From NCBI GenBank assembly GCA_048939765.1, contig JBHLPF010000003.1, forward strand, positions 32,001-96,000: a stretch of DNA of 64,000 nt. The letters are read 5' to 3'. The notes beneath the pieces were generated by a model. It searched no databases. It was not told the origin of the DNA and saw only the letters and a list, made by a program, of their open reading frames with translations. Below, in pieces: positions 1 to 41,757 of the stretch (positions within the stretch are counted from its first letter, which is position 1; each line of letters begins with the position of its first letter). This DNA is from Promethearchaeota archaeon (GTDB taxonomy: Archaea > Asgardarchaeota > Thorarchaeia > Thorarchaeales > Thorarchaeaceae). Position numbers and translations under genes: made by a program.

Positions 1-641
1 CATTAGGATACCTTATTGTGGCATTCGCTCGAACCATGGCGGGAAAGGAAGGTGGTGCATTCACAATGCGAAGAATGGGACGCCTCATGCTTCATCTTGG
101 CCTAATCGTGCTGCTTCTGGGAGTTTTTCTAAGTGAAAATGTGGTAATTAGTCAAACCAACACGTATCTCACAGATCAATCGTATGAACTGGGCTCCTCA
201 GGAATAACAGTTGGAGTGAGAGATATCAACCTGGTGTATTGGAATAACGAGTATGATTTCGAATTGCGAGTAGTAATCTTGGTGACAGAAGGAAACTCAG
301 CCTGGTTGGGACTCATAGTTGTCAATGGAAATCCGCAATGGCAATCACTGATACAGGATGTTTACGTGCAGACTACAGCTCTTCGGGATGTATTTGTGTC
401 GCTCCGGACGTTTGACCAAGTTGCTCCCATGGCTTATAGCGTAGAACTTCAAGCGAAGATTCTTCCACTCGTGACCTTTGTATGGTTAGGAGCCTTCCTA
501 ATGATAATGGCTCTGCTTCCATTAAGTGCCATGGAGCTCTCTAGCTTGAGAAAAGCCCTCAAGGAAAAGCAAGAGGACCTCTATGGCCCTATAGAGGATG
601 ACATCGAAGAGGAAATTCCGATATCCGCAGAAAATGAATGA
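1..641 (+). CDS. ccmF: Cytochrome c biogenesis heme lyase CcmF/NrfE, C-terminal part (5' end outside window)
   Basis: HLGLIVLLLGV helix, soluble insert, then PLVTFVWLGAFLM, as in CcmF C-termini; ccmABCE nearby; frame open from window edge. Confidence 0.8.
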   Translation, partial: LGYLIVAFARTMAGKEGGAFTMRRMGRLMLHLGLIVLLLGVFLSENVVISQTNTYLTDQSYELGSSGITVGVRDINLVYWNNEYDFELRVVILVTEGNSAWLGLIVVNGNPQWQSLIQDVYVQTTALRDVFVSLRTFDQVAPMAYSVELQAKILPLVTFVWLGAFLMIMALLPLSAMELSSLRKALKEKQEDLYGPIEDDIEEEIPISAENE

Positions 642-783
642 TAACGTTCACAATATTGCACTCTATGCCACTAAACCGTCTATTCTAGTGGCATTCATTT
701 TCTTCTTTCTTATAGGGAAACTTATGAGATAGGGTTACAATTTGAATTTCTCGTCGGCTTTGTAGCTCGCTGGAGGTTTCAAA

Positions 784-1416
784 ATGGCAAAGGTTGTGGG
801 TATTTCAGGTAGTAATAGACAAGGCGGCAACACATCCACTCTCGTAGAACTTGCCCTCGACGCCGCACGGGAGTATGGTGTAGAAACCGAGTTTATTGAG
901 CTCGCCGATTTTGAAATACTGCCATGCAGGCATTTCCTCAAATGCTATGAATCGGGGCGGTGTAGTCAAGATGATGACTTGAATCCCATTATTGAGAAGA
1001 TGTATGACGCGCACGGAATAATATTCGGCTCTCCAGTACACTATGCCAGCGTTACATCTCAGATGAAGAACTTCATGGATCGTGTCGGTCGGTTTGCTCA
1101 TCTTGAGGGTAAGGTAGGCGCTGCTCTTGCGGTTGCAAGAAAATCTGGGGCAGACATCGCTCTCAACCAAATGCTCTTTTTCATGCTTGTCAAGGAGATG
1201 ATTGTTCCTGGCGGTGTTTCTTGGCCAATAGGATTCGCTATGAATGTAGGTGACATCAGAAGTGATATGGAGGCCATGCGGATGGCGCAACAGATGGGCA
1301 GACGTGTGGCATTTCTATCTGATTTGGTGGCCAAAATCCCCGTTCCATGGCACTATGAACCCCGTCCTAAGGATGAGAAGTCGAGATTTGGGGACGAATG
1401 GAAGACTTCTGACTAA
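784..1416 (+). CDS. Iron-sulfur flavoprotein (Isf) / NADPH-dependent FMN reductase family
   Basis: VVGISGSNRQGGNT flavodoxin-like start, Cys cluster region, IIFGSPVHYASVTSQMKNFMDR. Confidence 0.85.
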   Translation: MAKVVGISGSNRQGGNTSTLVELALDAAREYGVETEFIELADFEILPCRHFLKCYESGRCSQDDDLNPIIEKMYDAHGIIFGSPVHYASVTSQMKNFMDRVGRFAHLEGKVGAALAVARKSGADIALNQMLFFMLVKEMIVPGGVSWPIGFAMNVGDIRSDMEAMRMAQQMGRRVAFLSDLVAKIPVPWHYEPRPKDEKSRFGDEWKTSD

Positions 1417-1802
1417 GGAGTCGCAGGTTCGTATTTGCTTGGACATTGAGCAAGTATATCATGAGCTCGAATCAGAAGTTGTTCGCCTTCTTCGAGAAAT
1501 CCAATAGCGACCATATCTTGTCCGTCGGTCAAAGTTGGAAGCTCACTTTCCACCATGACAAGAATCGTATGATTATCTCCAGCGAGAACAAGAGTAATGT
1601 TGTCGGCCGTGATGGATATTGAACCATTCTGGAGTTTTCCTTTTACCTGAATTGTACGCCCCATGAATTGATCGGGATTCTCCACAACTGCATCTACGCT
1701 GATGTACGGATCCACGAAGAAGTTGAGCATTCCATATGCGACGAAACCAACTACTACGACCAGAACGCCTGCGATTAGTAGCATGCGTGTTTTCTTCTTC
1801 AC
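1413..1802 (-). CDS. ccmE: Heme chaperone CcmE, CxxxY (System I*) type
   Basis: N-terminal TM, OB-fold-like body, terminal AQCPSKY. Confidence 0.9.
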   Translation of the reverse strand: MKKKTRMLLIAGVLVVVVGFVAYGMLNFFVDPYISVDAVVENPDQFMGRTIQVKGKLQNGSISITADNITLVLAGDNHTILVMVESELPTLTDGQDMVAIGFLEEGEQLLIRAHDILAQCPSKYEPATP

Positions 1803-1808: not shown

Positions 1809-2204
1809 TCACTCCGTATTCGTATCTCCAACTAGCAATGCGACGGACTCCTCAATGCCTGCAATCGCAAATATCTGCCAAAGCAGCATGATAAACACTC
1901 CAGCCCAGACAACTATTGCCATCGGAAATAGTGGAATTTGCACCCAGAAGATTAGCCCTGCGAGCAAGACCACCACACCGACCAATTCTAGGATGAAGGC
2001 CACAATGACAATCACCTCGTTTGGCATCTTAGGAAGTCCAACACTCTGCTCGCCTGCAGAGGATAGCATTACCATCGTCTTGTTGATTCCATTGATTCTA
2101 ATGAACAGCCAGAAAAGCAAGGAAAAAGTCCCTACCCATAGTATGACGGCCACAGTGAATAACTCGTTTGAAAGGATGATTTCTGGTGACTGCATTCTAC
2201 TCAC
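1809..2204 (-). CDS. Small membrane protein in the ccmD position, probable CcmD-like
   Basis: Three hydrophobic segments; lies between ccmC and ccmE with tight spacing. Confidence 0.5.
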   Translation of the reverse strand: MSRMQSPEIILSNELFTVAVILWVGTFSLLFWLFIRINGINKTMVMLSSAGEQSVGLPKMPNEVIVIVAFILELVGVVVLLAGLIFWVQIPLFPMAIVVWAGVFIMLLWQIFAIAGIEESVALLVGDTNTE

Positions 2205-2868
2205 TCCTCTGCATCCGCAGTTCCATTAGTTTTTCACTGACCAAGTCTATTCTGTAGGTTAACTCGAGAATCAGAAAATAGACTAGTCCAATAGCAATGA
2301 GACTAACCATCAGAGTCATTCCGTGTTCTATTCCCATCTGTAATCCTTCGCCAGTAATTACAATTGGATGCAGAGTCTCCCATACTCGAATTGAGATGTA
2401 ACTAAGAATGACTGCTGGAAAGGCTATGATTCCAAAGATTGAGCCGAACTGTGCTCGTACATCTCGGTCACTGACTGATGCTCGATACGCAATCAGACAT
2501 GCATACGCTATCCATAGGATCAACGTGGTCGTTTCTCTTGGGTCCCAGTTCCAATACACACCCCAAGATGCATTGGCCCAAATCATCCCGCTAAGCAATG
2601 TGATGGTTGTGAAGACGAGGCCAATCTTAATCGATGCGGCACCGACCAGGTCGTAGCGTAGGTCTTGCTTCCAGAGATACATGACTCCGCAGACCAGCGT
2701 CACACCAAATGCGAGGTAGCCAACAAGCGCTGGAGCGACATGCTGAAAGAAGATTCTGATCCTCTCCCCAAGATTCACTTCTGGCGGTGCGAAAACCCAT
2801 ACCATATAGAGGTAGAGGAAGGTGATTATCAGTGATAGAATATACATCACCATTCGTTTTGTATTCAC
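2197..2868 (-). CDS. ccmC: Heme exporter subunit CcmC
   Basis: WWD motif WGVYWNWDPRET, flanking His in FFQHVA and TLHP. Confidence 0.93.
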   Translation of the reverse strand: MNTKRMVMYILSLIITFLYLYMVWVFAPPEVNLGERIRIFFQHVAPALVGYLAFGVTLVCGVMYLWKQDLRYDLVGAASIKIGLVFTTITLLSGMIWANASWGVYWNWDPRETTTLILWIAYACLIAYRASVSDRDVRAQFGSIFGIIAFPAVILSYISIRVWETLHPIVITGEGLQMGIEHGMTLMVSLIAIGLVYFLILELTYRIDLVSEKLMELRMQRSE

Positions 2869-2938: not shown

Positions 2939-3661
2939 TCAGGCTGAAAGCGTGAACTGAAAGACAGCAGCTGATAGCAGCACCATGGCAAAGACGTGTC
3001 CAGATAAGAGGAACAGCAGTTCAACAATTCCTGGTCCTACAAATGGAATTCCAATGGCCAGCATCCTCGTGATTTCCACTAGCAGAATCAGAGCTGTCGT
3101 GGCGGTTGGAAAGTAGACTATGGGGTACACGGTTGCCTTTGATTCAGCAGGCATTGTTAGTGCAGATGCCATAGCTCCAACTGCAGCCAAGTCCAATGTT
3201 CCTAGAATGAATGTTATTAGGATGAAGAGCGGTGACATCCCCGGGGCAAATGAAAAGCCGAGAAGACCCATGGCGATTGGAACCAGGAATACCTCAACCA
3301 GTCCCATCAGCATGAACCCGTAGATGACTTTCCCCAGATACACTGACCATCCTGGTATTGGAGCAAGAGACAATCCCTTTAGAGTTCCAGTTTCTGACTC
3401 GGAGATGAATACTGGCGAGAAGCCAAACATACCAGTGAAGAACACGACCACCCATAGCATTCCGCTTCCTATCTCCGTCATTACTTGGAGTCTGGCGGCA
3501 GGGTCTGGAATGATAAATGTGGAAGAACTAAGCACGAGACCCAGAACAAAGACCGCGATGATGGCAAACAAAAACATCGAAAATGCTTCAAATCGCTTTC
3601 TCATTTGAGTGACCAGATCTTTCTTCGCGATTGCCAGCGCATATGATAGGCCAGACCCCAT
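2939..3661 (-). CDS. ccmB: Heme exporter permease CcmB
   Basis: About 6 TM, AKKDL start, ESETGTLKGLSLAP..VYLGK motif; between ccmA and ccmC; ATG at 3661 preferred. Confidence 0.85.
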   Translation of the reverse strand: MGSGLSYALAIAKKDLVTQMRKRFEAFSMFLFAIIAVFVLGLVLSSSTFIIPDPAARLQVMTEIGSGMLWVVVFFTGMFGFSPVFISESETGTLKGLSLAPIPGWSVYLGKVIYGFMLMGLVEVFLVPIAMGLLGFSFAPGMSPLFILITFILGTLDLAAVGAMASALTMPAESKATVYPIVYFPTATTALILLVEITRMLAIGIPFVGPGIVELLFLLSGHVFAMVLLSAAVFQFTLSA

Positions 3662-3671
3662 TCTATTCACC

Positions 3672-4346
3672 TCATATGTTTCCATCAAATTCCGAGATCG
3701 GCCCTTGACCTATGATCTCACCTTTTCTCAACGTTATGAAATCATCACACATTTCTGTTCCCAGTGCCAGATTGTGTGTCGTTAGAATCGCTGTTCTATC
3801 ATTCCGCTTTGAATCAATGTAGTTTCTGAACACCTCGGTAGAGTCCTTATCGAGACCTGAGAAGGGTTCATCAAGCAAGAACAATTCAGGGTCATGCAAT
3901 AGACTTCTGATAATATCGAATCTCTTTCTTAGTCCCGTGGATAGGATCTTTGTTGGTTCATCCAACCATGGCTTAACATCAAACTGCTCCGCTAGGTCTT
4001 CGATAGTGGTACTAGATGTATCATCATCTAGATCGTAAAGGTCAGAGTAGAATTTCAGATTCTCCCTACCAGTCAACTCACCGTATAGTAGAGGCTTGTC
4101 ACCGACAACACCAATCCTTCTTCTTACCTCAATTGGCTCCTCCTCAGTATCATATCCAAAGACCTTCACACTGCCTGCGTGTGGCTGAAGGAGAGTAGAT
4201 ATGACTCGCATAAGCGTGGTTTTTCCTGCGCCATTATTCCCAAATAGTGCGTGAACGCCGCCGATTGGGACATTGAACGAGATGTCCTTCAAAGCTACTC
4301 TATAGCCATAGCGTCGAGTCAGTCCGTCAACTTGTATAGATACCAT
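3672..4346 (-). CDS. ccmA: Heme exporter ABC ATPase CcmA
   Basis: Walker A GNNGAGKT, LSTG signature, LLDEP Walker B; start reassigned to ATG 4346. Confidence 0.88.
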   Translation of the reverse strand: MVSIQVDGLTRRYGYRVALKDISFNVPIGGVHALFGNNGAGKTTLMRVISTLLQPHAGSVKVFGYDTEEEPIEVRRRIGVVGDKPLLYGELTGRENLKFYSDLYDLDDDTSSTTIEDLAEQFDVKPWLDEPTKILSTGLRKRFDIIRSLLHDPELFLLDEPFSGLDKDSTEVFRNYIDSKRNDRTAILTTHNLALGTEMCDDFITLRKGEIIGQGPISEFDGNI

Positions 4347-4418
4347 TTGGAGTGCCTCACACGGGTCAATGTGGGAGCACCCAACCCTTTTTTTAGTCTG
4401 ACGGATGCGCCGTAGGCT

Positions 4419-5618
4419 ATGGCTGAGAACTCCTATGACGTTATAGTCGTGGGTGCAGGTCCCGCTGGCTGCACAGCTGCCACAGTAGTTGCCGCCGCTG
4501 GCTTTAAGACTCTTGTAGTTGACAGAAGGAGGGAGATAGGAGTTCCAATCCACTGTGGTGAGTTCTTACCGACCCCAGGAGAGATGCGTGACCTATTGCG
4601 TGATTCTCCGAGAGCATCACGACTTGTCGATATCCCCAACCATCTCATTACAAATCGGACAAACCGATTGATGCTTGCTTCCCCATTGAGTCACAAGTTC
4701 TACTTCAAACTTGATGCCCATGTGATTGACCGGACACGCTTCGATCAGCATATTGCAGGCAAGGCTCGAGATGCTGGTGCTGAGTTCGTTCTTGAGTCAA
4801 CAGTCATCGAGCGAACCAAAACGAATCGACTCATCATTAGGCAGAAAGGTGAGAATTCTGAGTTGAATGCTCGTGTAGTAATAGGCGCTGATGGACCAAG
4901 TTCGCTCATTGCTAAGTCCATGGGCAATCACTATCACAGTCCCGGAAGAGACCTCTGTCCTTCCTTGAATTACGTTGTTGCTGATATTGAATGTGACTCG
5001 AAAACTACCGAGATGTATTTCGGAAACAATGTTGCTCCAGGAGGGTACTCATGGATTATTCCCAAGGGAAACGACACGGCGAATGTGGGCTTTGGGATGC
5101 GACGACCATTCGGAGCGCCTGGAGTTTCATTGAAGCAATATCTTCGAAGATTCATGGAGTTTCATCCTCTCGTTTCTCCGCGCACCAAGAACTCCACGAT
5201 TGTATCTAGAGTCGGAGCCATCATTCCTGTCGGAGGGCCAGTTGACAGAACGTGTTCTGATAATGCAGTTCTTGTTGGGGATGCGGCTGGTCATGTGATG
5301 GCGTCAAACGGTGGAGGGATTCCGACTGCTCTTGTAGGTGGGGAGATCGCCGGAGAGTCGGTCGTCAGTAACTTGATAGATGGAACTCCGTTGTCATCCT
5401 TTGAGCATCAATGGAGAAGGGAGATCGGGAATGAGCTCTATGCTGCGTTAAGGATTCTCCGCATAGCTGATCAAGTGATGCCCTCTGACAGAATAACCGA
5501 TCAATGCATGCGTCTTGCTGGCTCCAGATACCTCAAGCATCTGATTCGATGTAGGCTTCCTGCCCCTGTCGATTTTGCCTCAAAGACACTTGTGAGAGTA
5601 CTGAGTGTCTTGGAATGA
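4419..5618 (+). CDS. Geranylgeranyl reductase family FAD oxidoreductase
   Basis: VVGAGPAG, CGE, IGADG, PGGYSWIIPKG, VGDAAG..GGGI motifs. Confidence 0.9.
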   Translation: MAENSYDVIVVGAGPAGCTAATVVAAAGFKTLVVDRRREIGVPIHCGEFLPTPGEMRDLLRDSPRASRLVDIPNHLITNRTNRLMLASPLSHKFYFKLDAHVIDRTRFDQHIAGKARDAGAEFVLESTVIERTKTNRLIIRQKGENSELNARVVIGADGPSSLIAKSMGNHYHSPGRDLCPSLNYVVADIECDSKTTEMYFGNNVAPGGYSWIIPKGNDTANVGFGMRRPFGAPGVSLKQYLRRFMEFHPLVSPRTKNSTIVSRVGAIIPVGGPVDRTCSDNAVLVGDAAGHVMASNGGGIPTALVGGEIAGESVVSNLIDGTPLSSFEHQWRREIGNELYAALRILRIADQVMPSDRITDQCMRLAGSRYLKHLIRCRLPAPVDFASKTLVRVLSVLE

Positions 5619-5624: not shown

Positions 5625-6656
5625 TCAGTGAATCCGTTCCAGCACAAAGTCAGCAACTTTGTTTAGAAGCCTGTCATTCTTGAGGTCAACCGCTTCGAGT
5701 GCACTCTTTGCGCGTTCCACATATGTCTTTGCCAACTCGGTGGCATGATGCACAGCCTCTGTTTCATCGATGAGCTGCAATACCGGGGCTAGATTACCTT
5801 CTTTCAAAGCCTCGATGCCCTCTTGGCGTTCTGCCTCTGAACTGACCTCAAGAGCGTGAACTAGTGGATAATTGCATCTTCTTCCCTTAATATCCGACTG
5901 GACGGTCTTGCCTGCAACCTGAAGTGAAGCGATTACATCTAGTATATCATCTCTTATCTGAAAACTGAAACCTAGCATCTCTCCATACTTGGTGAGAGCG
6001 GTTTTCTGCTCATTCGAGGCTCCGCCCACAAGGGCTCCAACTCTAGCTGCCTCTCTCATGAAGGTCGCTGTCTTGTGCTCTATCACTTTTAGGTATCTCT
6101 GGCGATTGAAAGAATCCGGGCTATCTTCGCACAAGAGGAAGTCGAGAGCTTCTCCTTCAGTCATTCGTATGCCGCCTCTTCCAAGATGAATTAGTAGCTC
6201 TGGTGTTGCCTGTTCGCCAATGATTTCAACTGCTTGGGCTATCAGCAAATCCCCAGCGAGCACCGCAATCTTTGCACCGAATTTCTGGTGAGTGGTCTCG
6301 ACGCCCCTTCGGACCAAGTCTTCATCAATGATGTCATCATGAACTAAACTGGCAGTCTGAAGTAGCTCCATTGCTAGGGCAAAAGGCAGGACCTTCTTGA
6401 CCTCTCCTCCCACAGCTTCGCAGCTTAGCAGTGTGATCAGTGATCTAAGCCTCTTTCCTCCAGCCAGGAGCAGGTGATGAGCGGCATCATAGAGGACTGA
6501 AGGTTCTCCCCTGTATTTGTCAAGAAACTTCTTCATCTCTTGGTCAATAAGATTCATTCGTGATTGAAGTGTGTCATCATTGAGTAGGTGCTCAACAGAG
6601 GTCATCTTCTCATCATGCTGAGGTCCTGTCGCTGTTCGTTTCTCAGATCCGCGCAA
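5625..6656 (-). CDS. trans-Polyprenyl diphosphate synthase, probably medium/long chain
   Basis: GGKRLR, FARM ASLVHDDIID..RRG, KT, FQIRDDILD; Ala at position -5 of FARM; true start may be ATG 6605. Confidence 0.9.
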   Translation of the reverse strand: MRGSEKRTATGPQHDEKMTSVEHLLNDDTLQSRMNLIDQEMKKFLDKYRGEPSVLYDAAHHLLLAGGKRLRSLITLLSCEAVGGEVKKVLPFALAMELLQTASLVHDDIIDEDLVRRGVETTHQKFGAKIAVLAGDLLIAQAVEIIGEQATPELLIHLGRGGIRMTEGEALDFLLCEDSPDSFNRQRYLKVIEHKTATFMREAARVGALVGGASNEQKTALTKYGEMLGFSFQIRDDILDVIASLQVAGKTVQSDIKGRRCNYPLVHALEVSSEAERQEGIEALKEGNLAPVLQLIDETEAVHHATELAKTYVERAKSALEAVDLKNDRLLNKVADFVLERIH

Positions 6657-6801: not shown

Positions 6802-7866
6802 TTGACATTACTGGTAACTATGACCGAAGGCGATGAATCCGACCCAAGCATTCCTGAGAAACCTAGCAAGCTAAGAATTTGGATGCTTGAGATGCGCCTG
6901 CCCTTTCTAACTGGAAGCATCACTCCTGTCTTGCTGGGTACGGCAATGGCATGGAGCATGCATGGTGTATTCCTTTTGGATGTCTTTCTTCTCACTCTGG
7001 TAGTCGGGGTATGTCTTCATCTAGGAGCAAACATCAGCAACGACTACTTTGATCACATCAGCACAGCCGACGACATCAATGTAGAATACGTGCGACCATT
7101 CACAGGTGGCAGTAGGATGATTCAACTTGGATGGCTCTCTCCCCGTGAAGTTCTAGCAGGTTCGTTTGTAGCTTATGGAATTGCGGTCATTGTCGGGCTC
7201 TATCTCGCTTTCACACGGGATTTGCTTCTCCTTGCCTTCGGCATTGTTGGTGCTGCCTCAGGATTCTTCTACACCGCCCCTCCTTTCAGATTTGTGTCAC
7301 GCGGCTATGGCGAGGTGTTCATAGGACTGAACTTCGGAGTGCTCATGGTTCTTGGCTCCTTTTACGTTCAAGTTCTCACACTTGCTTGGGAGCCTGTGAT
7401 TGCATCACTCCCAGTGGCCCTCCTAATCACAGCGGTGCTATACATAAATGAATTTCCCGACGCCAAGGCTGACGAGGCAGCAGGGAAGCTGACAGTTGTG
7501 GTCAGGCTTGGCAAGAAGCGAGCCGCGACAGGGTACGGAGTATTGATGGCATTTGTGTACGGTACTCTGGTTTTTGGAATTCTTCTGAATTTCGTAGCGC
7601 TCTTTGCCTCAGTCGCTTTGACTACATTGCCTCTTGGGATATTTGCAACTCGACATGCGATAGCCAATCATAGCAATACTCCAGCGCTTGTTCCTGCAAA
7701 TGCGGCAACAGTGGTGAACCATCTTCTGACTGGATTATACCTCACCATTGCATATGTTATGCATGGGTTTGGACTGTCTCTTGAGATTGTTCTACTTGTG
7801 GCGGTTGTGATGCTTCTGGTTGTTCTAATGCAATATCGTAGTTTGAACACGCCGCCAAAGTCCTAA
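6802..7866 (+). CDS. menA: 1,4-dihydroxy-2-naphthoate polyprenyltransferase (UbiA family)
   Basis: RLPFL start, NDYFD..DD, GGSR, YTAPP, NEFPD..D..AGK.T..VRLG motifs; multi-TM. Confidence 0.88.
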   Translation: MTLLVTMTEGDESDPSIPEKPSKLRIWMLEMRLPFLTGSITPVLLGTAMAWSMHGVFLLDVFLLTLVVGVCLHLGANISNDYFDHISTADDINVEYVRPFTGGSRMIQLGWLSPREVLAGSFVAYGIAVIVGLYLAFTRDLLLLAFGIVGAASGFFYTAPPFRFVSRGYGEVFIGLNFGVLMVLGSFYVQVLTLAWEPVIASLPVALLITAVLYINEFPDAKADEAAGKLTVVVRLGKKRAATGYGVLMAFVYGTLVFGILLNFVALFASVALTTLPLGIFATRHAIANHSNTPALVPANAATVVNHLLTGLYLTIAYVMHGFGLSLEIVLLVAVVMLLVVLMQYRSLNTPPKS

Positions 7867-33306: not shown

Positions 33307-33317
33307 TGGGAGGTGTC

Positions 33318-34451: not shown

Positions 34452-34457
34452 AGCAAG

Positions 34458-34889
34458 ATGGGATTCTTCAGAAACCTAGGTGACATATTCCAGATATTGA
34501 GACATATATTCCGTCAAGTGATGTCCCGTCCATTCACGTACTTCTATCCATTCGAGGACAGGGAATATCCCGAGAGGACTCGTGGCAGGCACATTCACGT
34601 GCGAGAGAATTGCACAGCCTGCATGCAGTGTGTACGAGCTTGTCCTGTTGTAGCTATTAGTATCGATAAGAGTGATAAGAAGTTCGAGAAGGACGCAGCC
34701 CTAACCTTTGATTATACAAGGTGTATCTTCTGTGGCTTATGCGTTCAAGCCTGCAGATTTGATGCACTATTTCACACCCAGGTGGTAGATATCAGCGAGG
34801 GAGAGAGGGAGGACTTGGTCTACGGTCCTGACAAGATAGAGACTCTCGATAGAGACCCGCTTGAGTGGCGTGGAAGGAGGTTCCGTTGA
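34458..34889 (+). CDS. nuoI: Complex I-like subunit I, 2x[4Fe-4S]
   Basis: TYFYPFE..RTRGRH, CTACMQCVRACP, CIFCGLCVQAC. Confidence 0.93.
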   Translation: MGFFRNLGDIFQILRHIFRQVMSRPFTYFYPFEDREYPERTRGRHIHVRENCTACMQCVRACPVVAISIDKSDKKFEKDAALTFDYTRCIFCGLCVQACRFDALFHTQVVDISEGEREDLVYGPDKIETLDRDPLEWRGRRFR

Positions 34890-36406
34890 TGCAGCTAGCA
34901 TTCGAGTTCCCATTTATGACCTTGTCCTTACTAGTCCTCTTTATCGGAGGGCTTTTGATCTACCTCTTCCGCGGTCGACTCGAAAAGACGTCTGGAAAAA
35001 TCGCAGTTGGCTTCTCGGCGGTGGGGGCATTGCTAATGGTGCCTCCATTCTACCGCATCCTGGTCGAAGGTGGTCGGGCGGCTGAGAAGGTTTCGTGGTC
35101 AGTTGTGCTCGGAGAGTTCGGTCTCTATTTGGATGAGATTGCCTTCCCAATTACGTTCGCAGTTGTTGTCTTGGGATTCCTTTCAGTCATCTATGCCGTA
35201 GGTTATACTGAGCATACTGAGAACAAGCCCACCTTCTTCGCAAACACACTATTCTTCATAATGGGCATGCAAGGAGTGACGCTTGCCACCAATTTGCTGG
35301 AGTTCTTCATTTTCTGGGAAATCATGCTTGTCCCATCATACTTCCTGATTCTGTTTTGGGGCTTGCCTGAGACCCGAAAACGAACCGCCCTCAAGTTCTG
35401 GCTCTATACACAGGCTGGAGCGGTCTGTATTCTGATCGCCCTAGGACTTTTGTACTTCTTCACAGGCACCTTTGAACTCTACACCATACTAGCAATGGCT
35501 CCTGCCATATGGTCAGACCTCCGACTATTGCAGATTATTTTCATCTTGTTCGCTGCTGGCTTTTTAGTCAAGATGGCAGCTTTCCCTGTGCATTGGTGGT
35601 TGCCTCCAGTTCACGCCGAAGCTCCGACTCCTATCTCAGTTCTGCTATCCGGAGCTATGATTGAGACTGGTGCATATGCTCTCGTCCGTTTCGGAATCAT
35701 AACGCTTGGACCTGCAGCTGCGTCTCTCTCATTCTGGATTGGAGTACTTGGTGTGGCTACGATGTTCTACGGAGGAGCTATGGCGCTCGTCCAGAAAGAC
35801 ATCAAGAGACTGCTAGCCTACTCATCGGTCTCCCAGATGGGCTACGTTTTGTTTGCACTCGGAATGATAACCACAATGGGGGTATCCGGTGGTCTATTCC
35901 ACCTCATCAATCACGCCTTCAGCAAGGGTGTCTTGTTTATGACTGCTGGAGCGGTGATTCATCAGACTCATCTAAGGGACGTCGACAAGATGGGCGGTCT
36001 CTCAAACAAGATGCCCATCACCGCATTTGCCGCGGCTATCGGCGCAATGAGCATCGCAGGGAGCCCCCCTCTCTCTGGATTCGCCAGTGAGTGGATGATG
36101 TTTCTCGGCGGCTTTGACGCCGCTCAGATGGGACCAGGAGGCCTTGCAAGACCTGAGTTCTTCTTCCTGTCCATCTTGGCTGTTTCAAGCTCCATATTGA
36201 GTGCCGGCTACATGCTCCGGTATCTCTGGAAGGTCTTTCTTGGGCCTCATCCAGCTGAACTGGAGGATGTCAAGGAGAGCTCGGACTGGATGACTGCTCC
36301 AATGATCATCCTTGGAGTTCTCATCGTGTTATTTGGAATATTCCCAGGATTGGCACTGGATGTCATAGTTCCTGGCGTAGAAGGAATATCTACCCTGCTT
36401 CCATGA
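34889..36406 (+). CDS. nuoM: Antiporter-like subunit NuoM, copy 1
   Basis: FWEIMLVPSYFLI..WG, KFWLYT, VKMAAFPVHWWLP..HAEAP, AYSSVSQMG, PPLSGFASE. Confidence 0.85.
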   Translation: MQLAFEFPFMTLSLLVLFIGGLLIYLFRGRLEKTSGKIAVGFSAVGALLMVPPFYRILVEGGRAAEKVSWSVVLGEFGLYLDEIAFPITFAVVVLGFLSVIYAVGYTEHTENKPTFFANTLFFIMGMQGVTLATNLLEFFIFWEIMLVPSYFLILFWGLPETRKRTALKFWLYTQAGAVCILIALGLLYFFTGTFELYTILAMAPAIWSDLRLLQIIFILFAAGFLVKMAAFPVHWWLPPVHAEAPTPISVLLSGAMIETGAYALVRFGIITLGPAAASLSFWIGVLGVATMFYGGAMALVQKDIKRLLAYSSVSQMGYVLFALGMITTMGVSGGLFHLINHAFSKGVLFMTAGAVIHQTHLRDVDKMGGLSNKMPITAFAAAIGAMSIAGSPPLSGFASEWMMFLGGFDAAQMGPGGLARPEFFFLSILAVSSSILSAGYMLRYLWKVFLGPHPAELEDVKESSDWMTAPMIILGVLIVLFGIFPGLALDVIVPGVEGISTLLP

Positions 36407-36411
36407 GGTGA

Positions 36412-38736
36412 TTGACAGTGTTGCTAGGACTCCCCTATTGGCTTATCCTCGTAATTCCACTGCTTGGCTCCCTCCTCGTTCCACTTGTTGGAAGGTTCAG
36501 TGAGCGTGCACGAGACTGGACTCCTGCGATCCTAATGGGAATCTCTATGGTCTTCTGCTGGTCGCTGCTGCCTGAAATCGGCCATCCTACTCAGACAACA
36601 AGCTGGATGTGGATTGAAGTTCTAGGGCTCGAATTTGAAGTGCTTCTAGATCCGCTCTCTGTTGTGATGGGCATTCTAGCCAGCACCCTCTGTTTCCTCA
36701 TCTATGTCTATTCAACCGAATATATGGCTCATGAAGGAGACCGTGACCGGTTCTTCTTCCTCATGCTTGCCTTCGGCGGCGGAATGCTCACGCTCGTGCT
36801 CAGCAACAATCTGCTGATCGCATTCATCGGATGGGAGATCATGGGATTCTGCTCCTACGGTTTGATAGGATTCTGGAATGACAAGAGGAACCCTCCCGAG
36901 ACCGACCCGACAGACATTCACTACACAAACCCACTTCTTCAATTCAAGACCGAGGGACAGTATAACACTCACTGCGGGACCAAGGCATTCGTTGTTACCC
37001 GTATCGGTGATGCATTCATGCTTGGTGGAATCCTGATTCTCTTCGTCTTCACCGGCACTTTCTCATTCACCGAGATGGCTGCTGATGCCCAATCTTGGTG
37101 GAGCACCATGGCTGGCATTGGCATGCTAGTGCCTACATTCTTGCTTATCTTCATGGGCGCTATTGGTAAGTCTGGACAGGCACCATTGCAGGTTTGGCTA
37201 CCAGAGGCTATGGCGGGTCCAACAAGCGTATCTGCTCTCATCCACGCTGCAACGATGGTCAAGGCGGGAGTCTATATCACCGCACGATTCCTAGTCACAA
37301 TGGTATCAGCAGCTGGCGGTGAGGGAAATGGAGGAGAACATATTGCTGGTCTACAGGCAATTGGCTTTGAGGCTGCACTGACGTTCTTCATCTTTGTAGC
37401 GATTATAGGCGGCATAACTGCCCTCATGACTGCGACCATGGGAATGGTCTCAAACGAGCTCAAGCAGATACTGGCGTTCTCAACACTCAGCCAGCTTGGA
37501 TACATGATGCTCTCACTAGGTGTGGGTGGCGTTCTTCAGGCCGAGGGACTTCATTTCGGTGATGCATACTTGAGTGGCGTTATGCATGTGATTTCGCATG
37601 GTGCCTTCAAGGCTCTTTTGTTCCTTGCATCAGGAGGAGTCATCCATGCTGTGCATTCGAAGTTCATTACCAAGATGGGGGGTCTCAAGCAACACATGCG
37701 TAAGACCTTCATCGTTATGTGGATTGGTGTTCTCGCTCTTGCAGGCATACCGCCGTTCTCAGGGTTCTGGTCAAAGGACTCTATCATCGAGTATGCCTAT
37801 GAGCTGGCGGTTGAATGGCCGAATCCGTTAGGTTGGATGCTATTCTTCTTTGCAGTCCTAGCAGCCGCCTGCACACTATTTTATAGCCTCCGACTCATGG
37901 GCATCACTTTCTATGGCCCTTCCAAGGAGAGTCACGACCATCACGAGTCACACGGCTCACACGAGAATGAGGAATCCGAAGAACATGAAGAGTTACATTA
38001 TGATGACCTAGATGAGCAAGAAGAATCGCATGATGATGATTCAGAGGAGCATGAAGAACCGCATGACAGCCCCTCTGAAGAGCAGGATCACTCAACTCCT
38101 CATGATCCGGGACCGGCAATGATGGTGCCATTGTATATACTAGCGGCTTTCACAATCATTGCATTCCTCGTCTTCCCATTCGTTCAGAACATTGTGCTTG
38201 AGGAGAGCCACACCTGGGCTGAGAACTTTGCTCACATGATAGAAGTCAAGCTAACCTACCCGGGCATCGTGCCGTTCATGATTACACTTGGCGCACTCGC
38301 TTTGGGTGGAATTCCTGGATATGTGATGTACATCAGGGGTGCAGACACTCCCAACACTTGGGTTCCGGAGAAAGGCTTTCGAAGGAGAGTTCATAATTTC
38401 CTCAAGCACCGATGGTACATCAACGAAATGTACTATGGATTACTAAACCGATTCCTGAGTGCTGCCGAGCGTTACCGAGTGAATGTTGACGATAAGATCA
38501 TCGATGGCATCGACTTCAAGTCCGCTGACACAGGCAAAGGCCTTGCCACCAAATTGAGGTGGTTCGATGACAATGTGGTTGACGGCTTTGCTGAGGGGGT
38601 ATCTACGTACAGTGTTGCCGCTTCAGAGTCTGGCCAATCTGCACAGACTGGTCGAGTCAATGACTACGTTGGAGTGATCATGTTCGGGATTGGGATACTT
38701 GTCATCATTGTTCTTCTGTCGCTGGGGGTGCTCTAG
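36412..38736 (+). CDS. nuoL: Antiporter-like subunit NuoL with His/acidic insert and extended lateral helix
   Basis: GWEIMGFCSY, KAFVVTRIGD, GKSGQAPLQVWLPEAMAGPT.VSALIHAATMVKAG, GFWSKD, WYINEMY..QTG. Confidence 0.93.
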   Translation: MTVLLGLPYWLILVIPLLGSLLVPLVGRFSERARDWTPAILMGISMVFCWSLLPEIGHPTQTTSWMWIEVLGLEFEVLLDPLSVVMGILASTLCFLIYVYSTEYMAHEGDRDRFFFLMLAFGGGMLTLVLSNNLLIAFIGWEIMGFCSYGLIGFWNDKRNPPETDPTDIHYTNPLLQFKTEGQYNTHCGTKAFVVTRIGDAFMLGGILILFVFTGTFSFTEMAADAQSWWSTMAGIGMLVPTFLLIFMGAIGKSGQAPLQVWLPEAMAGPTSVSALIHAATMVKAGVYITARFLVTMVSAAGGEGNGGEHIAGLQAIGFEAALTFFIFVAIIGGITALMTATMGMVSNELKQILAFSTLSQLGYMMLSLGVGGVLQAEGLHFGDAYLSGVMHVISHGAFKALLFLASGGVIHAVHSKFITKMGGLKQHMRKTFIVMWIGVLALAGIPPFSGFWSKDSIIEYAYELAVEWPNPLGWMLFFFAVLAAACTLFYSLRLMGITFYGPSKESHDHHESHGSHENEESEEHEELHYDDLDEQEESHDDDSEEHEEPHDSPSEEQDHSTPHDPGPAMMVPLYILAAFTIIAFLVFPFVQNIVLEESHTWAENFAHMIEVKLTYPGIVPFMITLGALALGGIPGYVMYIRGADTPNTWVPEKGFRRRVHNFLKHRWYINEMYYGLLNRFLSAAERYRVNVDDKIIDGIDFKSADTGKGLATKLRWFDDNVVDGFAEGVSTYSVAASESGQSAQTGRVNDYVGVIMFGIGILVIIVLLSLGVL

Positions 38737-38737
38737 A

Positions 38738-40282
38738 ATGCAGCTAGATCTCATCCAAAATCTTATCGCAATGTTGCCTATGGAAAGCATCCTCCCCTTC
38801 ATGCTTTTCCTACCACTTGTAGCAGCATTCATCGCTTACATCGTTGGAGGCAGAGGAGCTAGAGCAATTACCATTGCCATTACTTTCTTCGAGCTGTTGC
38901 TTTCAATCGTCCTTATTGTCGCCATTTTGCCTAATCCTGGAGCAATGTGGTATGAATGGACATTTACACTCAGTACAGTGCAATTCGCAAGCTGGACCGC
39001 GGTTCTTCAGATATTTCTTGGAGTCGATGGAATCTCAGTTGCTATGGTGTTCCTATCAAACCTCGTAGTCTTCATTGCGGCTCTTAGCTCAAATCATATC
39101 CACAAATCCAGGCACCTGTATTACATGTTCTTCCTGATGCTCCAGACAGGGCTGCTTGGCGTTTTCATGTCATTTGATCTTATCAGCTTCTTCATTTTCT
39201 GGGAGTTGGTCCTGATACCGATGTTCTTCATAATTGGTAGATGGGGAGAAGAGGGATGTGAACATGCAGCTGTCAAATTCTTCATCTATACACATCTTGG
39301 ATCGGCTGTGATGCTGGTCTCATTCATGGCACTGTTCTTCCTGGGACCCGGTACATTCAACATGATTGCTATCAAGGCTGCACCCATTGCAATCAACATC
39401 CAAATTGGTTTTGCTCTGGCTGTCTTTCTGGGTGCTGGCGTCAAGCTCCCAGTGTTTCCCTTGCACAACTGGCTTCCATGGGCCCACGTTAAAGCACCGA
39501 CTCCTGGTTCAGTGATACTCGCTGGGATACTCTTGAAGATGGGAGGATATGGATTCATCAGACTAGGTCTCTGGATGGTCCCGCAGGGATTTGCTCGACT
39601 CAGTATCCCATTCGCTGTCCTCGCGGTCTTCACATGCATCTATGCTGCATTCGTAGCAATGGGCCAGACTGACGTGAAGTCAATGGTCGCCTACACATCG
39701 ATAAACCACATGGCTTGGGTGTTGCTTGGAGTTGCCATTGGAGGATTTGCCATCGGTGGTGGAGCTACGGAAGGTCAGCTCTTCTCAGCTAGTCTTGCAG
39801 TTCAGGGAGCGGTTTTCATGATGGTATCTCATGGGATGATCTCCTCTGTCATGTTCATCCTCGCCGGCCAGCTGAAGTACTCAGCTGGAAGCAGATTGAT
39901 ACCTGATGTCATGGGTCTGATGACAAAGGCTCCTAGGATGTCGGCAGTCTTTATCCTCGCAGTCTTCGCAGCCTTTGGATTGCCCGGAATGAGTGGATTC
40001 ATTGCGGAAGCATTAGTGCTCTTTGGCTCTGTGAATGTCTATATCTGGTCTGGCTTCATTGCGTTCGGCATCTTTGTCACAGTGGGCTATCTCCTCTGGA
40101 CACTGAACCGAATTGTGTTTAGTGACCCTGATTCTGAGAAGGAAGTTACTGAAGCACCATGGAGTGATCTTATTGCGCCAATCTTGATGATGATACCAGT
40201 GATTATCCTTGGGCTCTGGCCAGACCTTGTCCTTAATCTAGTGATACCAATAGTCAATGACATGATAGGGGTGATTCCATGA
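38738..40282 (+). CDS. nuoM: Antiporter-like subunit NuoM, copy 2
   Basis: LGVDGIS, FWELVLIPMFFII..WG, VKLPVFPLHNWLP.AHV.AP..GSVILAGILLKMGGYG, LPG.SGFIAE. Confidence 0.92.
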   Translation: MQLDLIQNLIAMLPMESILPFMLFLPLVAAFIAYIVGGRGARAITIAITFFELLLSIVLIVAILPNPGAMWYEWTFTLSTVQFASWTAVLQIFLGVDGISVAMVFLSNLVVFIAALSSNHIHKSRHLYYMFFLMLQTGLLGVFMSFDLISFFIFWELVLIPMFFIIGRWGEEGCEHAAVKFFIYTHLGSAVMLVSFMALFFLGPGTFNMIAIKAAPIAINIQIGFALAVFLGAGVKLPVFPLHNWLPWAHVKAPTPGSVILAGILLKMGGYGFIRLGLWMVPQGFARLSIPFAVLAVFTCIYAAFVAMGQTDVKSMVAYTSINHMAWVLLGVAIGGFAIGGGATEGQLFSASLAVQGAVFMMVSHGMISSVMFILAGQLKYSAGSRLIPDVMGLMTKAPRMSAVFILAVFAAFGLPGMSGFIAEALVLFGSVNVYIWSGFIAFGIFVTVGYLLWTLNRIVFSDPDSEKEVTEAPWSDLIAPILMMIPVIILGLWPDLVLNLVIPIVNDMIGVIP

Positions 40283-41757
40283 TGCTACAATTCTCAACGA
40301 TAATCGATGCTATCAGCGACATCCTGAGTCCCTTCTTTGCACTTGTCCCGGCGGAGTGGCTGGTATCGCTGCCAGCATTGACACTTATCCTATTCGGAAT
40401 CATTGCACTTATTGTTGGAATGAGAAGAAGTCCATTGGCAGTAAGTTTCATTGGTCTATTCCTTGCGGGTCTTGAGATGATTCTCATCGACCCAGGTTCT
40501 TCATTTGGAGGGCTATTCGTAAGAGACATGTTTGGTGATTTCTTCATCTGGATCATTCTTGTTGTCGCGTTTATTATCTTGCTCTCGTCAACTACATATG
40601 GAGGAAATAGAGGCACATACAACTTTCTCCTCATGATGTCATTTGCTGGCGCAATATGGGTCGTCATGGCGACTGATCTTATTGCCCTGTATCTTGCCTG
40701 GGAATTAATGAGTACTCCAACATACATACTCGTCGCCTTAGGACCTCATCGAGGAGCCATAGACGGAGCAACGAAGTACTTCGTCATGGGACTGGTGTCT
40801 TCAGGCCTTATCGTATTTGGAATCGCACTAGTCTATGGCGCTACAGGTTATACAAGCTTTGCAGCGATAGGCACATTCGTGGCTTCTGTGTGGAGTGCCG
40901 GTTCACCTTCCGCCTATGCAATGCTTCTTGCTATGGTGCTATTCCTGATAGGCTTCGGATTCAAAGTCGGGGTGTTCCCAGGATGGATGTGGGTTCCGGA
41001 TGCATACGCCACCGCCGATGGAAGCGTTACAGGTTATCTCGCCGGCGCGACCAAAAAGACCGGTGTCAGTGCCTTGCTCAGAATACTGCTTGTAGGATTT
41101 GTTGCAGCGCAGTTGGAATGGATGCCTGTGGTTGTGACCATCTCCATCCTTACAATGGTCATTGGAAACATCCTTGCGCTCTCACAACGTAATATCATGA
41201 GAATGTTTGCTTTCTCGTCGATTATGATGATGGGCCTCCTTTTCGTGGGGATAGCTGCAGGGACTGCTTTCGGAGCAGCAGCTGCGATGTTCACTGCGTT
41301 TGCCCATGCTCTCATAAAGACAGGTGCATTCATCCTCGTCTGGGCATTAGCTGTGTCTATTGGAAAAGAAGTCACATATGAAGATCTGAAAGGGCTCAGT
41401 ACCCGTGCTCCGGTTGTGGCCCTACTAATGGCCGTTCTGGTCTTTGCGCTGGCAGGTGCTCCTTTCACAGCAGGATTCTGGTTCAAGTGGTTCCTATTGC
41501 CTGGAGCTGCGGTTGATGCCGGACTTTGGTGGTTGGCAATAATTGCTGTACTGAACTCAGTGTTCGCACTTGGCTATTATCTGAGGATTCTCAGGTATTG
41601 CTACTTCATGGAACCAACAGAAAGCACAATCCTGCGCATACCAACAATTCCTCTTGTCGCAGTGGTACTCGCAGTCGTGGGCACAATAGTAATTGGCATA
41701 TTCCCAGGTCTAATCCTAGACTATGCATCATTAGCAGCTGGAGTCCTCGTCCCATAG
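40279..41757 (+). CDS. nuoN: Antiporter-like subunit NuoN
   Basis: WELMS.P.Y.L, KYFVMG, FKVGVFP..WVPDAY, AGAPFTAGFWFK, YYLR. Confidence 0.9.
   Translation: MMLQFSTIIDAISDILSPFFALVPAEWLVSLPALTLILFGIIALIVGMRRSPLAVSFIGLFLAGLEMILIDPGSSFGGLFVRDMFGDFFIWIILVVAFIILLSSTTYGGNRGTYNFLLMMSFAGAIWVVMATDLIALYLAWELMSTPTYILVALGPHRGAIDGATKYFVMGLVSSGLIVFGIALVYGATGYTSFAAIGTFVASVWSAGSPSAYAMLLAMVLFLIGFGFKVGVFPGWMWVPDAYATADGSVTGYLAGATKKTGVSALLRILLVGFVAAQLEWMPVVVTISILTMVIGNILALSQRNIMRMFAFSSIMMMGLLFVGIAAGTAFGAAAAMFTAFAHALIKTGAFILVWALAVSIGKEVTYEDLKGLSTRAPVVALLMAVLVFALAGAPFTAGFWFKWFLLPGAAVDAGLWWLAIIAVLNSVFALGYYLRILRYCYFMEPTESTILRIPTIPLVAVVLAVVGTIVIGIFPGLILDYASLAAGVLVP

Follow-up and report, generated by a model that had tools for sequence, protein, structure and literature searches.

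Can an archaeon respire when neither the haem macrocycle nor the naphthoquinone ring appears to be made by its own genes? This question is raised by a stretch of 64,000 nt from a member of Thorarchaeia (assembly GCA_048939765.1, contig JBHLPF010000003.1, here C50, positions 32001-96000), which we will call the window. It holds a gene island with cytochrome c maturation genes, quinone-tailoring genes, an array of flavoenzymes and iron-sulfur proteins and a complex I-like pump. We read the island as a membrane electron-transport system which can work only if haem and a quinone head group are both imported, a reading to which we give an even chance. Thorarchaeia count among the Asgard archaea with the widest distribution; they are usually portrayed as fermenters or acetogens, and no member is known to be in culture. 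If the reading is true, their energy metabolism would depend on neighbours, and this dependence bears on syntrophy-based ideas of the origin of eukaryotes. It also gives a lead for cultivation: hemin plus DHNA (1,4-dihydroxy-2-naphthoate) or menaquinone, together with candidate acceptors.

The assembly has 3.37 Mb and is 88.5% complete. Every long open reading frame (ORF) of the window was translated and then scanned against Pfam and NCBIfam. Class-wide searches covered 87 Thorarchaeia genomes from 17 genera, 24 of them at least 90% complete. Loci from eight other genera were also inspected, their ORFs being labelled by BLAST against the window proteins. The evidence consists of gene identities, motifs, conservation, synteny, co-occurrence and the absence of matches to the cofactor-pathway marker families searched.

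The island and its borders

The island starts 5.3 kb ahead of the window, at C50:26727 (L001:12727), and MutS is its left border. The order in the upstream part is a multihaem cytochrome, a 726-aa exported protein and CcmF. The far end is nuoN, and the whole feature spans window positions 1-41757 plus the upstream part. A preliminary description of the window had listed ccm genes, menA with a prenyl synthase and a geranylgeranyl reductase (GGR), five flavin/FeS modules, candidate haem proteins and a complex I-like pump of the 2M type, which has a second NuoM. This inventory agrees with Pfam and NCBIfam, and so does the 2M label: antiporter-like subunits 1 and 3 are NuoM and subunit 2 is NuoL, all above the NCBIfam cut-offs. 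The lineage had been guessed correctly as well, as is apparent from the names on 47 clusters of a fusion protein described below and from the Ras and TFIIB genes. The near-contiguous grouping of the genes is not a chance cluster: it is a conserved neighbourhood with the same core order in eight genera.

The island is a real, conserved variant assembled from known respiratory parts, and it is apparently undescribed. Searches of the literature on Thorarchaeota with NuoB, complex I/menaquinone, cytochrome c/nrfA and multihaem/ccm found no description of it. A NuoEFG-less complex I with menaquinone and an unidentified acceptor has been proposed for Sif- and Jordarchaeia (Sun et al., PMC9723677), and the complex I-like enzymes of Heimdallarchaeia have been treated as hydrogenases (Appler et al., bioRxiv 10.1101/2024.07.04.601786); neither study describes the thorarchaeial island. 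The new elements are the class-wide cofactor gaps, the division into a core and an accessory part, the upstream candidate for a terminal reductase and the placement of NuoD. The traits of most interest are the class-wide cofactor dependence, the MBS-type NuoD in a 2M frame and the new families of membrane cytochromes.

Finishing steps for quinone and haem

The genes which would supply the two cofactors are found at the beginning of the window:

3-641, plus strand: C-terminal third of CcmF (Pfam CcmF_C and Cytochrom_C_asm); the 689-aa gene starts upstream, at C50:30572
784-1416, plus strand: FMN_red-family flavoprotein (PF03358, 122.9 bits)
1413-1802, minus strand: CcmE (Pfam); CPSKY is the archaeal CxxxY haem site
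1809-2204, minus strand: small ORF with four transmembrane helices within the ccm cluster (from the sequence)
2197-2868, minus strand: CcmC (Pfam)
2939-3688, minus strand: CcmB (Pfam)
3672-4553, minus strand: CcmA (Pfam); the true start is probably internal
4419-5618, plus strand: GGR-family flavoprotein (GGR_cat; TIGR02032, 241 bits, over the cut-off)
5625-6656, minus strand: trans-polyprenyl diphosphate synthase (PF00348, 208.7 bits; all NCBIfam equivalogs below cut-off)
6802-7866, plus strand: MenA-type DHNA polyprenyltransferase (TIGR00751, 108.4 bits against a cut-off of 102.15)

MenA passes its cut-off by a small margin; all its best NCBIfam matches are MenA, and the motifs NDYFD and DAKAD..GK are present. 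It is found in 63 of the 87 genomes and in 15 of the 17 genera, with 41 genomes over the cut-off. The prenyl synthase has small residues (Ala, Ser) at positions -5 and -4 ahead of the first DDxxD (FARM), which hints at a product longer than C20. The GGR gene stands beside the prenyl synthase and MenA in 8 genera, and its product may be the enzyme which saturates the side chain of the quinone. A MenG/UbiE methyltransferase is encoded on another contig, at C22:9883-10602 (TIGR01934, 189.9 bits against 158.35).

Could the GGR, prenyl synthase and UbiA-family genes be plain archaeal lipid genes? We rejected this possibility: the UbiA protein matches only MenA models. The same view is also countered by a second prenyl synthase paralogue at C87 and by the presence of about 10 GGR paralogues in the genome. 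A role of the MenA homologue as lycopene elongase was rejected as well. In genome G077 (genus g15; L035, G077:C34:64001-84000) the prenyl synthase-MenA pair adjoins a carotenoid cluster, and this cluster owns a separate 286-aa UbiA protein, together with a phytoene synthase, two CrtI-like desaturases and a Caroten_synth protein. An ETF-QO-like flavoprotein with a quinone-binding domain also lies beside the pair in G077. Genome G074 (g13) has the same arrangement, judged by ORF size and BLAST matches only.

The maturation genes CcmA, B, C, E and F, with CxxxY in CcmE, are those of the streamlined archaeal System I, which is functional in Methanosarcina acetivorans (PMC9084895). As in that system, no CcmD, CcmH or CcmI was noted among the island genes. 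The differences are that the thorarchaeial host lacks haem synthesis genes and that the FMN_red flavoprotein and the four-helix ORF lie inside the cluster. The FMN_red protein has a weak similarity to WrbA/NAD(P)H:quinone reductases, every NCBIfam match being below cut-off; its gene adjoins ccmF/ccmE in G007 and G019, has a partial match in G010 and no match in G046.

The genome contains no detectable ALAD, porphobilinogen deaminase (HemC), ferrochelatase or MqnA/D, and no MenB over the cut-off. Because the assembly is incomplete, the key marker searches were repeated throughout the class. ALAD was found in 1 of the 87 genomes, MqnA/D and MenD in none; positive controls behaved as expected. 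The sole ALAD gene (G021:C459:866-1801) lies on a 3.3-kb contig of a metagenome-assembled genome which is 80% complete with 5% contamination, and it is probably a binning contaminant.

The preliminary description had presented the island as self-contained, encoding its own cofactor supply, and had named the lack of a naphthoquinone or haem source in the genome as a finding that would refute it. Marker families of both ring and haem were not found, and therefore the island is not self-contained. The encoded steps are finishing ones: prenyl synthase, MenA, MenG/UbiE and GGR-type reductase for the quinone, CcmABCEF for haem. If the island works, haem and a DHNA-like head group must probably come from outside. 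Some bacteria respire on borrowed cofactors: Streptococcus agalactiae and Lactococcus lactis use haem from outside and, with MenA, DHNA or menaquinone, and Haemophilus influenzae is a haem auxotroph with Ccm and NrfA. As in these bacteria, the late steps and the apoproteins are encoded here and the synthesis of ring and macrocycle is absent. The differences are that the host belongs to the archaea, that the gap concerns both cofactors throughout the sampled class, and that the chain is anaerobic.

A head-less pump with a fused flavoenzyme

The second half of the island contains the pump:

25475-26764, minus strand: CCG5, the HdrD-like partner of the fused flavoenzyme (Pfam)
26921-28876, plus strand: VAO/GlcD-type FAD enzyme fused to NuoB (Pfam FAD_binding_4, FAD-oxidase_C and Oxidored_q6)
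28873-29418, plus strand: 181-aa protein with three transmembrane helices and an acidic tail; 4-bp overlap with the fusion gene, no Pfam family
29514-29873, minus strand: 119-aa protein with four transmembrane helices, no Pfam family
30207-34889, plus strand: nuoA, J, K, C, D, H and I (Pfam); NuoD is at 32170-33306
34865-41757, plus strand: four antiporter-like subunits, NuoM (513 aa), NuoL (774 aa), NuoM (530 aa) and NuoN (492 aa)

All eleven core subunits (A, B, C, D, H, I, J, K, L, M, N) are found, B as a fusion. The two NuoM score 316 and 414 bits with TIGR01972 (cut-off 263.8), and NuoL scores 463 bits with TIGR01974, over its cut-off. The island has no NuoEFG or FpoF; a NuoG/HoxU-like gene with neighbours is found on another contig, C80. 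The N2 ligands of NuoB are present in the motifs GLGCCMVDG, GQCAASGG and PGCPP, including the adjacent CC pair, and are invariant in 31 sequences. NuoI carries both four-cysteine motifs.

The 2M complex I of Nitrospira and others has a second NuoM and a NuoL lateral helix longer by about 26 residues, as described in the passage of PMC9040806 which summarises Chadwick et al. 2018. The thorarchaeial pump also has a second NuoM beside L, M and N. In NuoL, about 95 residues lie between TM15 and TM16, its last two transmembrane helices, with a 26-residue internal repeat inside; this region may correspond to the lateral-helix insertion of the 2M enzymes. Unlike these, the thorarchaeial pump has no NuoEFG, has NuoB fused to a flavoenzyme, carries a NuoD which lacks the quinone tyrosine and provisionally groups with MBS/Mbx-type subunits, and follows the order A J K C D H I M L M N. 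It is a natural experiment in the evolution of complex I: a membrane arm of complex I type with an extra pump subunit is combined with a Tyr-less catalytic subunit of MBS type and with a flavoenzyme on NuoB, where no other enzyme has such a module.

The fusion is in frame, with about 50 helical residues as a linker; its likely start is at 26936, which gives a protein of 646 aa. Its NuoB is the only one found in the genome. The relatives of the fusion protein form 47 clusters, all but one named Thorarchaeota, and the full-length fusion is present in about 60 of the 87 genomes, in genera g1-g12, with 73-98% identity. CCG5 adjoins the fusion gene in all eight genera inspected (divergent in seven of them) and is 65-80% identical. 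In every one of the five inspected genomes which have nuoA on the stretch, the genes of the 181-aa and 119-aa proteins separate nuoA from the fusion gene. A few loci show irregularities: at G024:C5:93241-95186 the fusion gene falls into two overlapping frames (frameshift or split), and those of G018, G023 and G025 each have one in-frame TAG or TAA within the reported match.

In plants, L-galactono-1,4-lactone dehydrogenase binds non-covalently to a membrane-arm assembly intermediate of complex I. It is a VAO flavoenzyme attached to complex I, as in our case, and it is found in the match list of the fused domain (PDB 7A24 chain z), but the thorarchaeial flavoenzyme is translationally fused to NuoB.

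Cytochromes, flavoenzymes and CCG proteins

The upstream part contains two genes of interest:

L001:12727-14196 (C50:26727-28196), upstream of the window: multihaem cytochrome, 489 aa (Pfam Cytochrom_C552, 32.4 bits against 24.1)
L001:14374-16554, upstream of the window: 726-aa exported protein, anchored at its C-terminus

A count of CxxCH motifs over the whole genome gives one clear multihaem protein, this one, which lies 3.8 kb ahead of the window. It has an N-terminal helix, a Thr-rich stalk and a C-terminal anchor, and a C554 Pfam match in addition. There are six CxxCH and three non-standard sites (CX5CH, CMHCM, CX11CH), up to nine haem sites in total. Its PDB matches are weak: Desulfovibrio NrfA 2J7A (E = 2.9e-7, residues 275-419) and the multihaem protein 6I5B. 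The CMHC[M/Q] site aligns with a CxxCH of 6I5B; three genera have CMHCM and one has CMHCQ, the last residue thus never being His. Two more sites vary in spacing across genera, one as CxxCH/CX4CH/CX5CH and the other from CX4 to CX11. With NrfA/c552 (PDB 2J7A, 1OAH) and 6I5B the protein shares the C-terminal haem region with long helices (E = 3e-7) and a motif HHPQY where NrfA has QHPEY, and it is likewise anchored at the cell surface. It differs from them by its set of sites, by having no CxxCK, the active-site motif of NrfA, and by having no NrfH or NrfD partner.

The preliminary description had seen no terminal reductase, but a membrane-anchored cytochrome of the NrfA/c552 family in the same island provides a candidate just outside the window. 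No cytochrome bd, haem-copper oxidase or NrfD was found in this genome, and the molybdoenzymes found are FdhA and the NuoG/HoxU-like protein.

The 726-aa protein always sits between the cytochrome and ccmF. An Atlas model of it resembles the (alpha/alpha)6 barrel of AGE-family epimerases (TM-score 0.85 by target).

Between MenA and the fusion gene there is a 19-kb array with four VAO/GlcD-type FAD proteins, five HdrD-like proteins (CCG5 included), a flavoprotein of amine-oxidase type, two proteins with a PNPOx fold and four others which match no Pfam family. All of them are on the minus strand:

7877-9094: CCG protein (Pfam)
9095-10657: GlcD-like protein, subfamily A (Pfam, alignment)
10585-11079: His-rich protein of 164 aa with four transmembrane helices, resembling the membrane part of the 407-aa cytochrome below
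11036-12772: GlcD-like protein, subfamily B, with a C-terminal transmembrane tail (Pfam, alignment)
12775-13962: CCG protein (Pfam)
13969-14475: His-rich protein with 4-5 transmembrane helices and an HPVFVHFH N-terminus; no Pfam family at E = 5
14479-15186: exported monohaem c/Ig-like protein, 235 aa, with a C-terminal anchor; no Pfam family at E = 5
15344-17050: GlcD-like protein, subfamily B (Pfam)
17053-18333: CCG protein (Pfam)
18352-19683: amine-oxidase/HpnE/phytoene-desaturase-type flavoprotein (Pfam, NCBIfam)
19691-20815: CCG protein (Pfam)
20828-22453: GlcD-like protein, subfamily A (Pfam)
22288-23511: 407-aa protein with a haem-c motif (CX4CH), two beta-sandwich domains and four transmembrane helices (AlphaFold 2 model, alignment)
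23629-24117: PNPOx-fold protein (Pfam)
24118-25371: DUF7530 membrane domain fused to a PNPOx fold (Pfam)

The five FAD proteins match FAD_binding_4 with 114-131 bits and keep the FAD-binding signature. They form two subfamilies; in that of the fusion protein, two members have a hydrophobic C-terminal tail of about 90 residues in the place where the fusion has NuoB. The five CCG proteins have Fer4_8 (2x[4Fe-4S]) and two CCG stretches, with complete cysteine sets in all.

The GlcD-like/CCG family is strongly expanded in this genome, with at least seven further pairs outside the island, on contigs C91, C16, C55, C97, C2, C69 and C57. The amine-oxidase-type gene, between two CCG genes, is the most conserved of the accessory array (81-85% identity across genera).

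The candidate haem proteins of the array belong to genuine families. The 407-aa protein has CX4CH in this genome and CxxCH in one relative; among 53 homologues C39, C44, H45 and five His in the transmembrane region are invariant. Its family comprises at least 130 clusters, nearly all from Thorarchaeota. In the AlphaFold 2 model (pLDDT 83.9) H266 and H342/H345 are close to the outer side of the membrane, H297 and H363 to the inner side, an assignment which presumes that the N-terminal domains face outwards. In this model the spacing would suit two bis-His b haems, and the protein is a candidate for a single-chain transmembrane electron conduit. A Foldseek search with the model gave tandem Ig/FnIII matches and nothing on the transmembrane domain. 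The 164-aa protein is a free-standing version of this domain, and the 235-aa protein is a copy of the haem-c/Ig part; the latter has CX5CH here and the canonical CxxCH in relatives from four other genera. The small membrane proteins match no Pfam family at E up to 5. The His-rich four-helix proteins and the Ig-like monohaem proteins are candidates for new families which transfer electrons across the archaeal membrane.

A core and an accessory part

The order GGR, prenyl synthase, MenA, CCG5, fusion gene, 181-aa and 119-aa proteins, nuoAJKCDHI, M, L, M, N recurs in genera g1, g2, g6, g9, g11 and g12. In g3 and g10 it is the same up to the fusion gene, and nuoD is found elsewhere on the contig or in the assembly. 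MenA and the fusion gene are on one contig, about 2-29 kb apart, in at least 25 genomes. Orthologous NuoD occurs in g1-g12, with 72-98% identity.

The multihaem cytochrome is less widespread: it is present in 36 of the 87 genomes (g1, g3, g6, g9 and g12), and CcmF in 37, from the same five genera. The accessory set includes the cytochrome, the 726-aa protein, ccmF, the FMN_red gene, ccmECBA, the extra flavoenzyme/CCG pairs with their four-helix and CxnCH proteins and the amine-oxidase-type protein. Among the eight genomes inspected it is found only in those with the cytochrome. The PNPOx proteins are present in four of these five (this genome, G010, G019 and G046) and absent in G007. The accessory set may stand on either side of the core, in variable order, which points to selection on proximity and argues against plain inheritance of one arrangement.

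Genus g14 lacks the nuo operon; MenA, CCG5 and the flavoenzyme are still together there. The flavoenzyme is an unfused orthologue of 499 aa. We rejected it as the ancestral state: it ends in the first residues of the N-terminal helix of NuoB and nuo is missing behind it. By its sequence this gene looks like a deletion remnant.

A possible path of electrons

From this gene content we infer a direction of electron flow, the substrates, an acceptor and the uptake of cofactors. In the core, present in g1-g12, the prenyl synthase, which probably makes long chains, MenA and the GGR-type reductase would tailor the quinone, with MenG/UbiE encoded elsewhere. The pump would work without a head, with its four antiporter-like subunits and with NuoB covalently joined to a flavoenzyme which has CCG5 as partner. 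Reduced ferredoxin would enter at NuoI, as proposed for other NuoEFG-less complexes; alternatively, electrons might come through the attached flavoenzyme and CCG5. From the clusters of NuoI and NuoB they would pass to a lipophilic acceptor in the non-canonical NuoD/NuoH pocket. A prenylquinone could be this acceptor in spite of the missing tyrosine, and the transfer would drive the translocation of up to about five protons. We favour the flavoenzyme/CCG5 pair as a second redox site which shares the carrier.

In five genera the accessory part would add four more flavoenzyme/CCG pairs, anchored by transmembrane tails or by the His-rich four-helix proteins. The latter would hold two b haems, take electrons either from the quinol pool or straight from the CCG proteins, and deliver them to haem c on the outer side. 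The surface cytochrome of the NrfA family might be the terminal reductase or an outlet to an external acceptor. In its fullest version, most Thorarchaeia would be not only fermenters or acetogens but respirers on cross-fed haem and naphthoquinone head group, both of which they would finish themselves. Their head-less five-proton pump would have evolved from an MBS-type sulfur reductase towards a lipophilic acceptor, independently of canonical complex I, and its N2 subunit would be welded to a flavoenzyme; in five genera new b and c membrane cytochromes would lead to a nine-site surface cytochrome with CxxC[M/Q]. We consider this version less likely than not and put it forward tentatively.

The preliminary description had proposed a membrane chain based on menaquinone and cytochromes. 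Such a chain is still the most economical reading, but the words "menaquinone-based" need a caveat, and several observations weigh against the chain as we have drawn it. One is found in NuoD. Its motifs GPQHVSAHG, ERLCMLE and SLDPYPGWWDR are identical in six genera. In Nqo4 the quinone head group is held by two residues, His38 and Tyr87 (T. thermophilus numbering; PMC7684303). The thorarchaeial NuoD keeps the His pair of the beta1-beta2 loop (H38), but in all six genera aligned RLDY has become RLCM (D86 to Cys, Y87 to Met), so that the quinone tyrosine is lost. The best PDB match is MbsL (6U8Y_L, 204 bits), complex I 49-kDa subunits reaching at most 178. The closest relatives other than itself, out of 1.84 billion cluster representatives, share only 49% and 40% identity; of the 150 best matches, 62 have D-Y at the RLDY site, 28 have the C-G of hydrogenases and a minority have C-F, C-V or C-M. 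A quick FastTree phylogeny of the best matches, midpoint-rooted, puts NuoD in a Tyr-less clade of 19 members (support 0.885) among the MBS/Mbx-type subunits; the named members are from Heimdallarchaeota, Zestosphaera and Aquifex. Given this rooting and this choice of sequences, the grouping with the MBS/Mbx type is provisional. Judged by these residues, the pump is not a canonical quinone reductase.

The sister family of the lineage (genome G001) points in the same direction. It has the order J K B C D H I M L M N; its NuoB is unfused (152 aa), its NuoD is MBS-like and retains both residual cysteines, and MenA is absent. A 2M operon of this kind without MenA means that the ancestral pump need not have used quinone. 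It is most economical to suppose that the ancestral state was a 2M pump with an MBS-type catalytic subunit and that, in the lineage leading to g1-g12, nuoB moved beside MenA and CCG5 and was then fused to the flavoenzyme gene.

The remaining difficulties concern the two ends of the chain and its supply. Seven genera (g2, g4, g5, g7, g8, g10 and g11) carry the core without cytochrome or Ccm, and the re-oxidation of quinol is unexplained in them. Neither a haem importer nor a DHNA importer was identified. All five flavoenzymes have lost the Glu-His of GEHGIG, which we take to be the metal/substrate site of LDHD-type D-lactate/2-hydroxyacid dehydrogenases: the fusion protein has Ala-His and the four paralogues x-Tyr. 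Scores with TIGR00387, the glcD equivalog, are 128-139, far below the cut-off of 568. For both reasons "GlcD-like" is an assignment of fold and not of substrate. By standard potentials, transfer from ferredoxin to menaquinone is enough for five protons, and that from a lactate-type donor is not; ferredoxin is therefore favoured as the driving donor. Finally, the AlphaFold 2 model of the fusion, built on 31 near-identical sequences (pLDDT 59.5, pTM 0.49), was not used, because its quality does not allow the flavin to be positioned with respect to the NuoB clusters.

Other readings of the island

The strongest alternative is that the pump does not reduce quinone at all. It would be a machine similar to MBS or to Fpo-HdrD-GlcD, in which electrons from ferredoxin run along NuoI and NuoB and reduce either polysulfide in the NuoB/NuoD pocket or a disulfide or organic acceptor at the CCG5/flavoenzyme module; MenA would serve another purpose or a separate set of quinone enzymes. 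We consider it rather unlikely, with serious arguments on its side. The MbsL match of NuoD, its replaced D86 and Y87, its Tyr-less clade and the G001 operon without MenA speak for it, and so do the full HdrD-type cysteine sets of the five CCG proteins, one of which has the thiol:fumarate reductase TfrB as its best NCBIfam match, and a gene similar to CoA-disulfide reductase/NSR at 53400-54761. Head-less Fpo-like complexes with HdrD are also on record, and an Fpo-HdrD-GlcD complex has been hypothesised in Methanomethylicia, Bathyarchaeia and Korarchaeia (bioRxiv 10.1101/2022.08.18.504445; PMC8407382). The thorarchaeial island is similar in having an 11-subunit complex without dehydrogenase head, plus an HdrD-like CCG protein and a GlcD-like flavoprotein; it differs by the covalent link between the GlcD-like enzyme and NuoB, by the association with MenA and by the four antiporter-like subunits.

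The likeness to the MBS of Pyrococcus furiosus (PDB 6U8Y; PMC7684303) is also partial. The absence of the quinone Tyr and a Cys at the position of MbsL C85 are shared, but H38, absent in MBS, is kept and the C-terminal C385 is lost, the C-terminus having no cysteine. Neither an Mrp-type arm nor a spaced Cys pair in the small subunit, which leaves one Fe free, is found in the thorarchaeial pump: NuoB has the adjacent CC of complex I, and the arm is of complex I type, with NuoA/J/K and a NuoL with a long lateral helix. What a non-quinone acceptor leaves unexplained is the presence of MenA, prenyl synthase and GGR directly beside CCG5 and the fusion gene in eight genera.

A second alternative, which we regard as improbable, separates the cytochromes from quinone. 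The accessory part would be a wire across the membrane, comparable to Tmc, Hmc or DsrMKJOP in sulfate reducers, and the MenA/nuo core would be an independent neighbour. Electrons would go from the flavoenzymes to CCG proteins, then to the b haems of the four-helix proteins, to monohaem c, to the multihaem cytochrome and to an extracellular acceptor. Each extra flavoenzyme/CCG pair has indeed its own four-helix protein, monohaem c protein or both, and the 407-aa protein unites the haem-c and four-helix domains in one chain. The NCBIfam matches of one CCG protein include TmcB, HmcF and DsrK, and the existence of seven genera with a core and no cytochrome module agrees with two separate units. 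Like the island, the sulfate-reducer complexes combine an HdrD-like CCG protein in the cytoplasm with a haem-b protein in the membrane and a cytochrome c which faces outwards, but the thorarchaeial membrane and cytochrome subunits belong to unrelated new families, and a VAO-type flavoenzyme is present on the cytoplasmic side. Against this reading, every one of the five genera with the cytochrome has the module next to the core, in variable order and on either side, which argues for a functional tie. Moreover there is no quinol dehydrogenase of NrfH/NapC or NrfD type to serve a separate quinone chain, so that the four-helix proteins are the only candidates for quinol oxidation. Such a wire overlaps with a chain dependent on imported haem and quinone, and does not exclude it.

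That the island is a decaying or silent remnant, unworkable without synthesis of haem and quinone, is highly improbable: the absence of matches to the haem and naphthoquinone-ring markers searched, the patchy cytochrome module within g12 (15 of 28) and the g14 locus, with nuo deleted and a truncated fusion gene kept, would fit this idea, but the ORFs are intact in dozens of genomes with the identities given above for the fusion protein and NuoD, the ligand motifs are invariant, synteny extends across genera, and haem-auxotrophic respirers exist among bacteria.

Neighbouring genes

The window continues beyond nuoN with genes which do not belong to the island:

60434-62992: FeoA and a split FeoB, 18-21 kb beyond nuoN
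From 63091: LarA, also within 18-21 kb beyond nuoN

The preliminary description had placed feoABC and larA further along the stretch. FeoA, the split FeoB and LarA are indeed there, but outside the syntenic unit: they are not beside the island in any of the stretches inspected from relatives. Between them and nuoN lie a Ras GTPase, an ACD-type ligase, an 1831-aa surface protein and two TFIIB genes. FeoB is divided into an N-terminal GTPase ORF (61753-62571) and a C-terminal permease ORF (60434-61756), which overlap by 4 bp.

The Ras-family small GTPase (41963-42637) comes directly after nuoN and is also found in G046, with 59% identity. The 1831-aa protein (47697-53192, minus strand) has weak matches to Big_1/invasin-type Ig-like domains and is probably a surface protein. 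In Pyrococcus an enzyme of the CoA-disulfide-reductase/NSR kind is co-regulated with MBS; the similar flavoprotein at 53400-54761 is 12 kb past the pump and scores 326 bits with TIGR03385, below the cut-off. The two tandem TFIIB-repeat genes are at 56519-58521, and the shorter one (231 aa) has no zinc ribbon.

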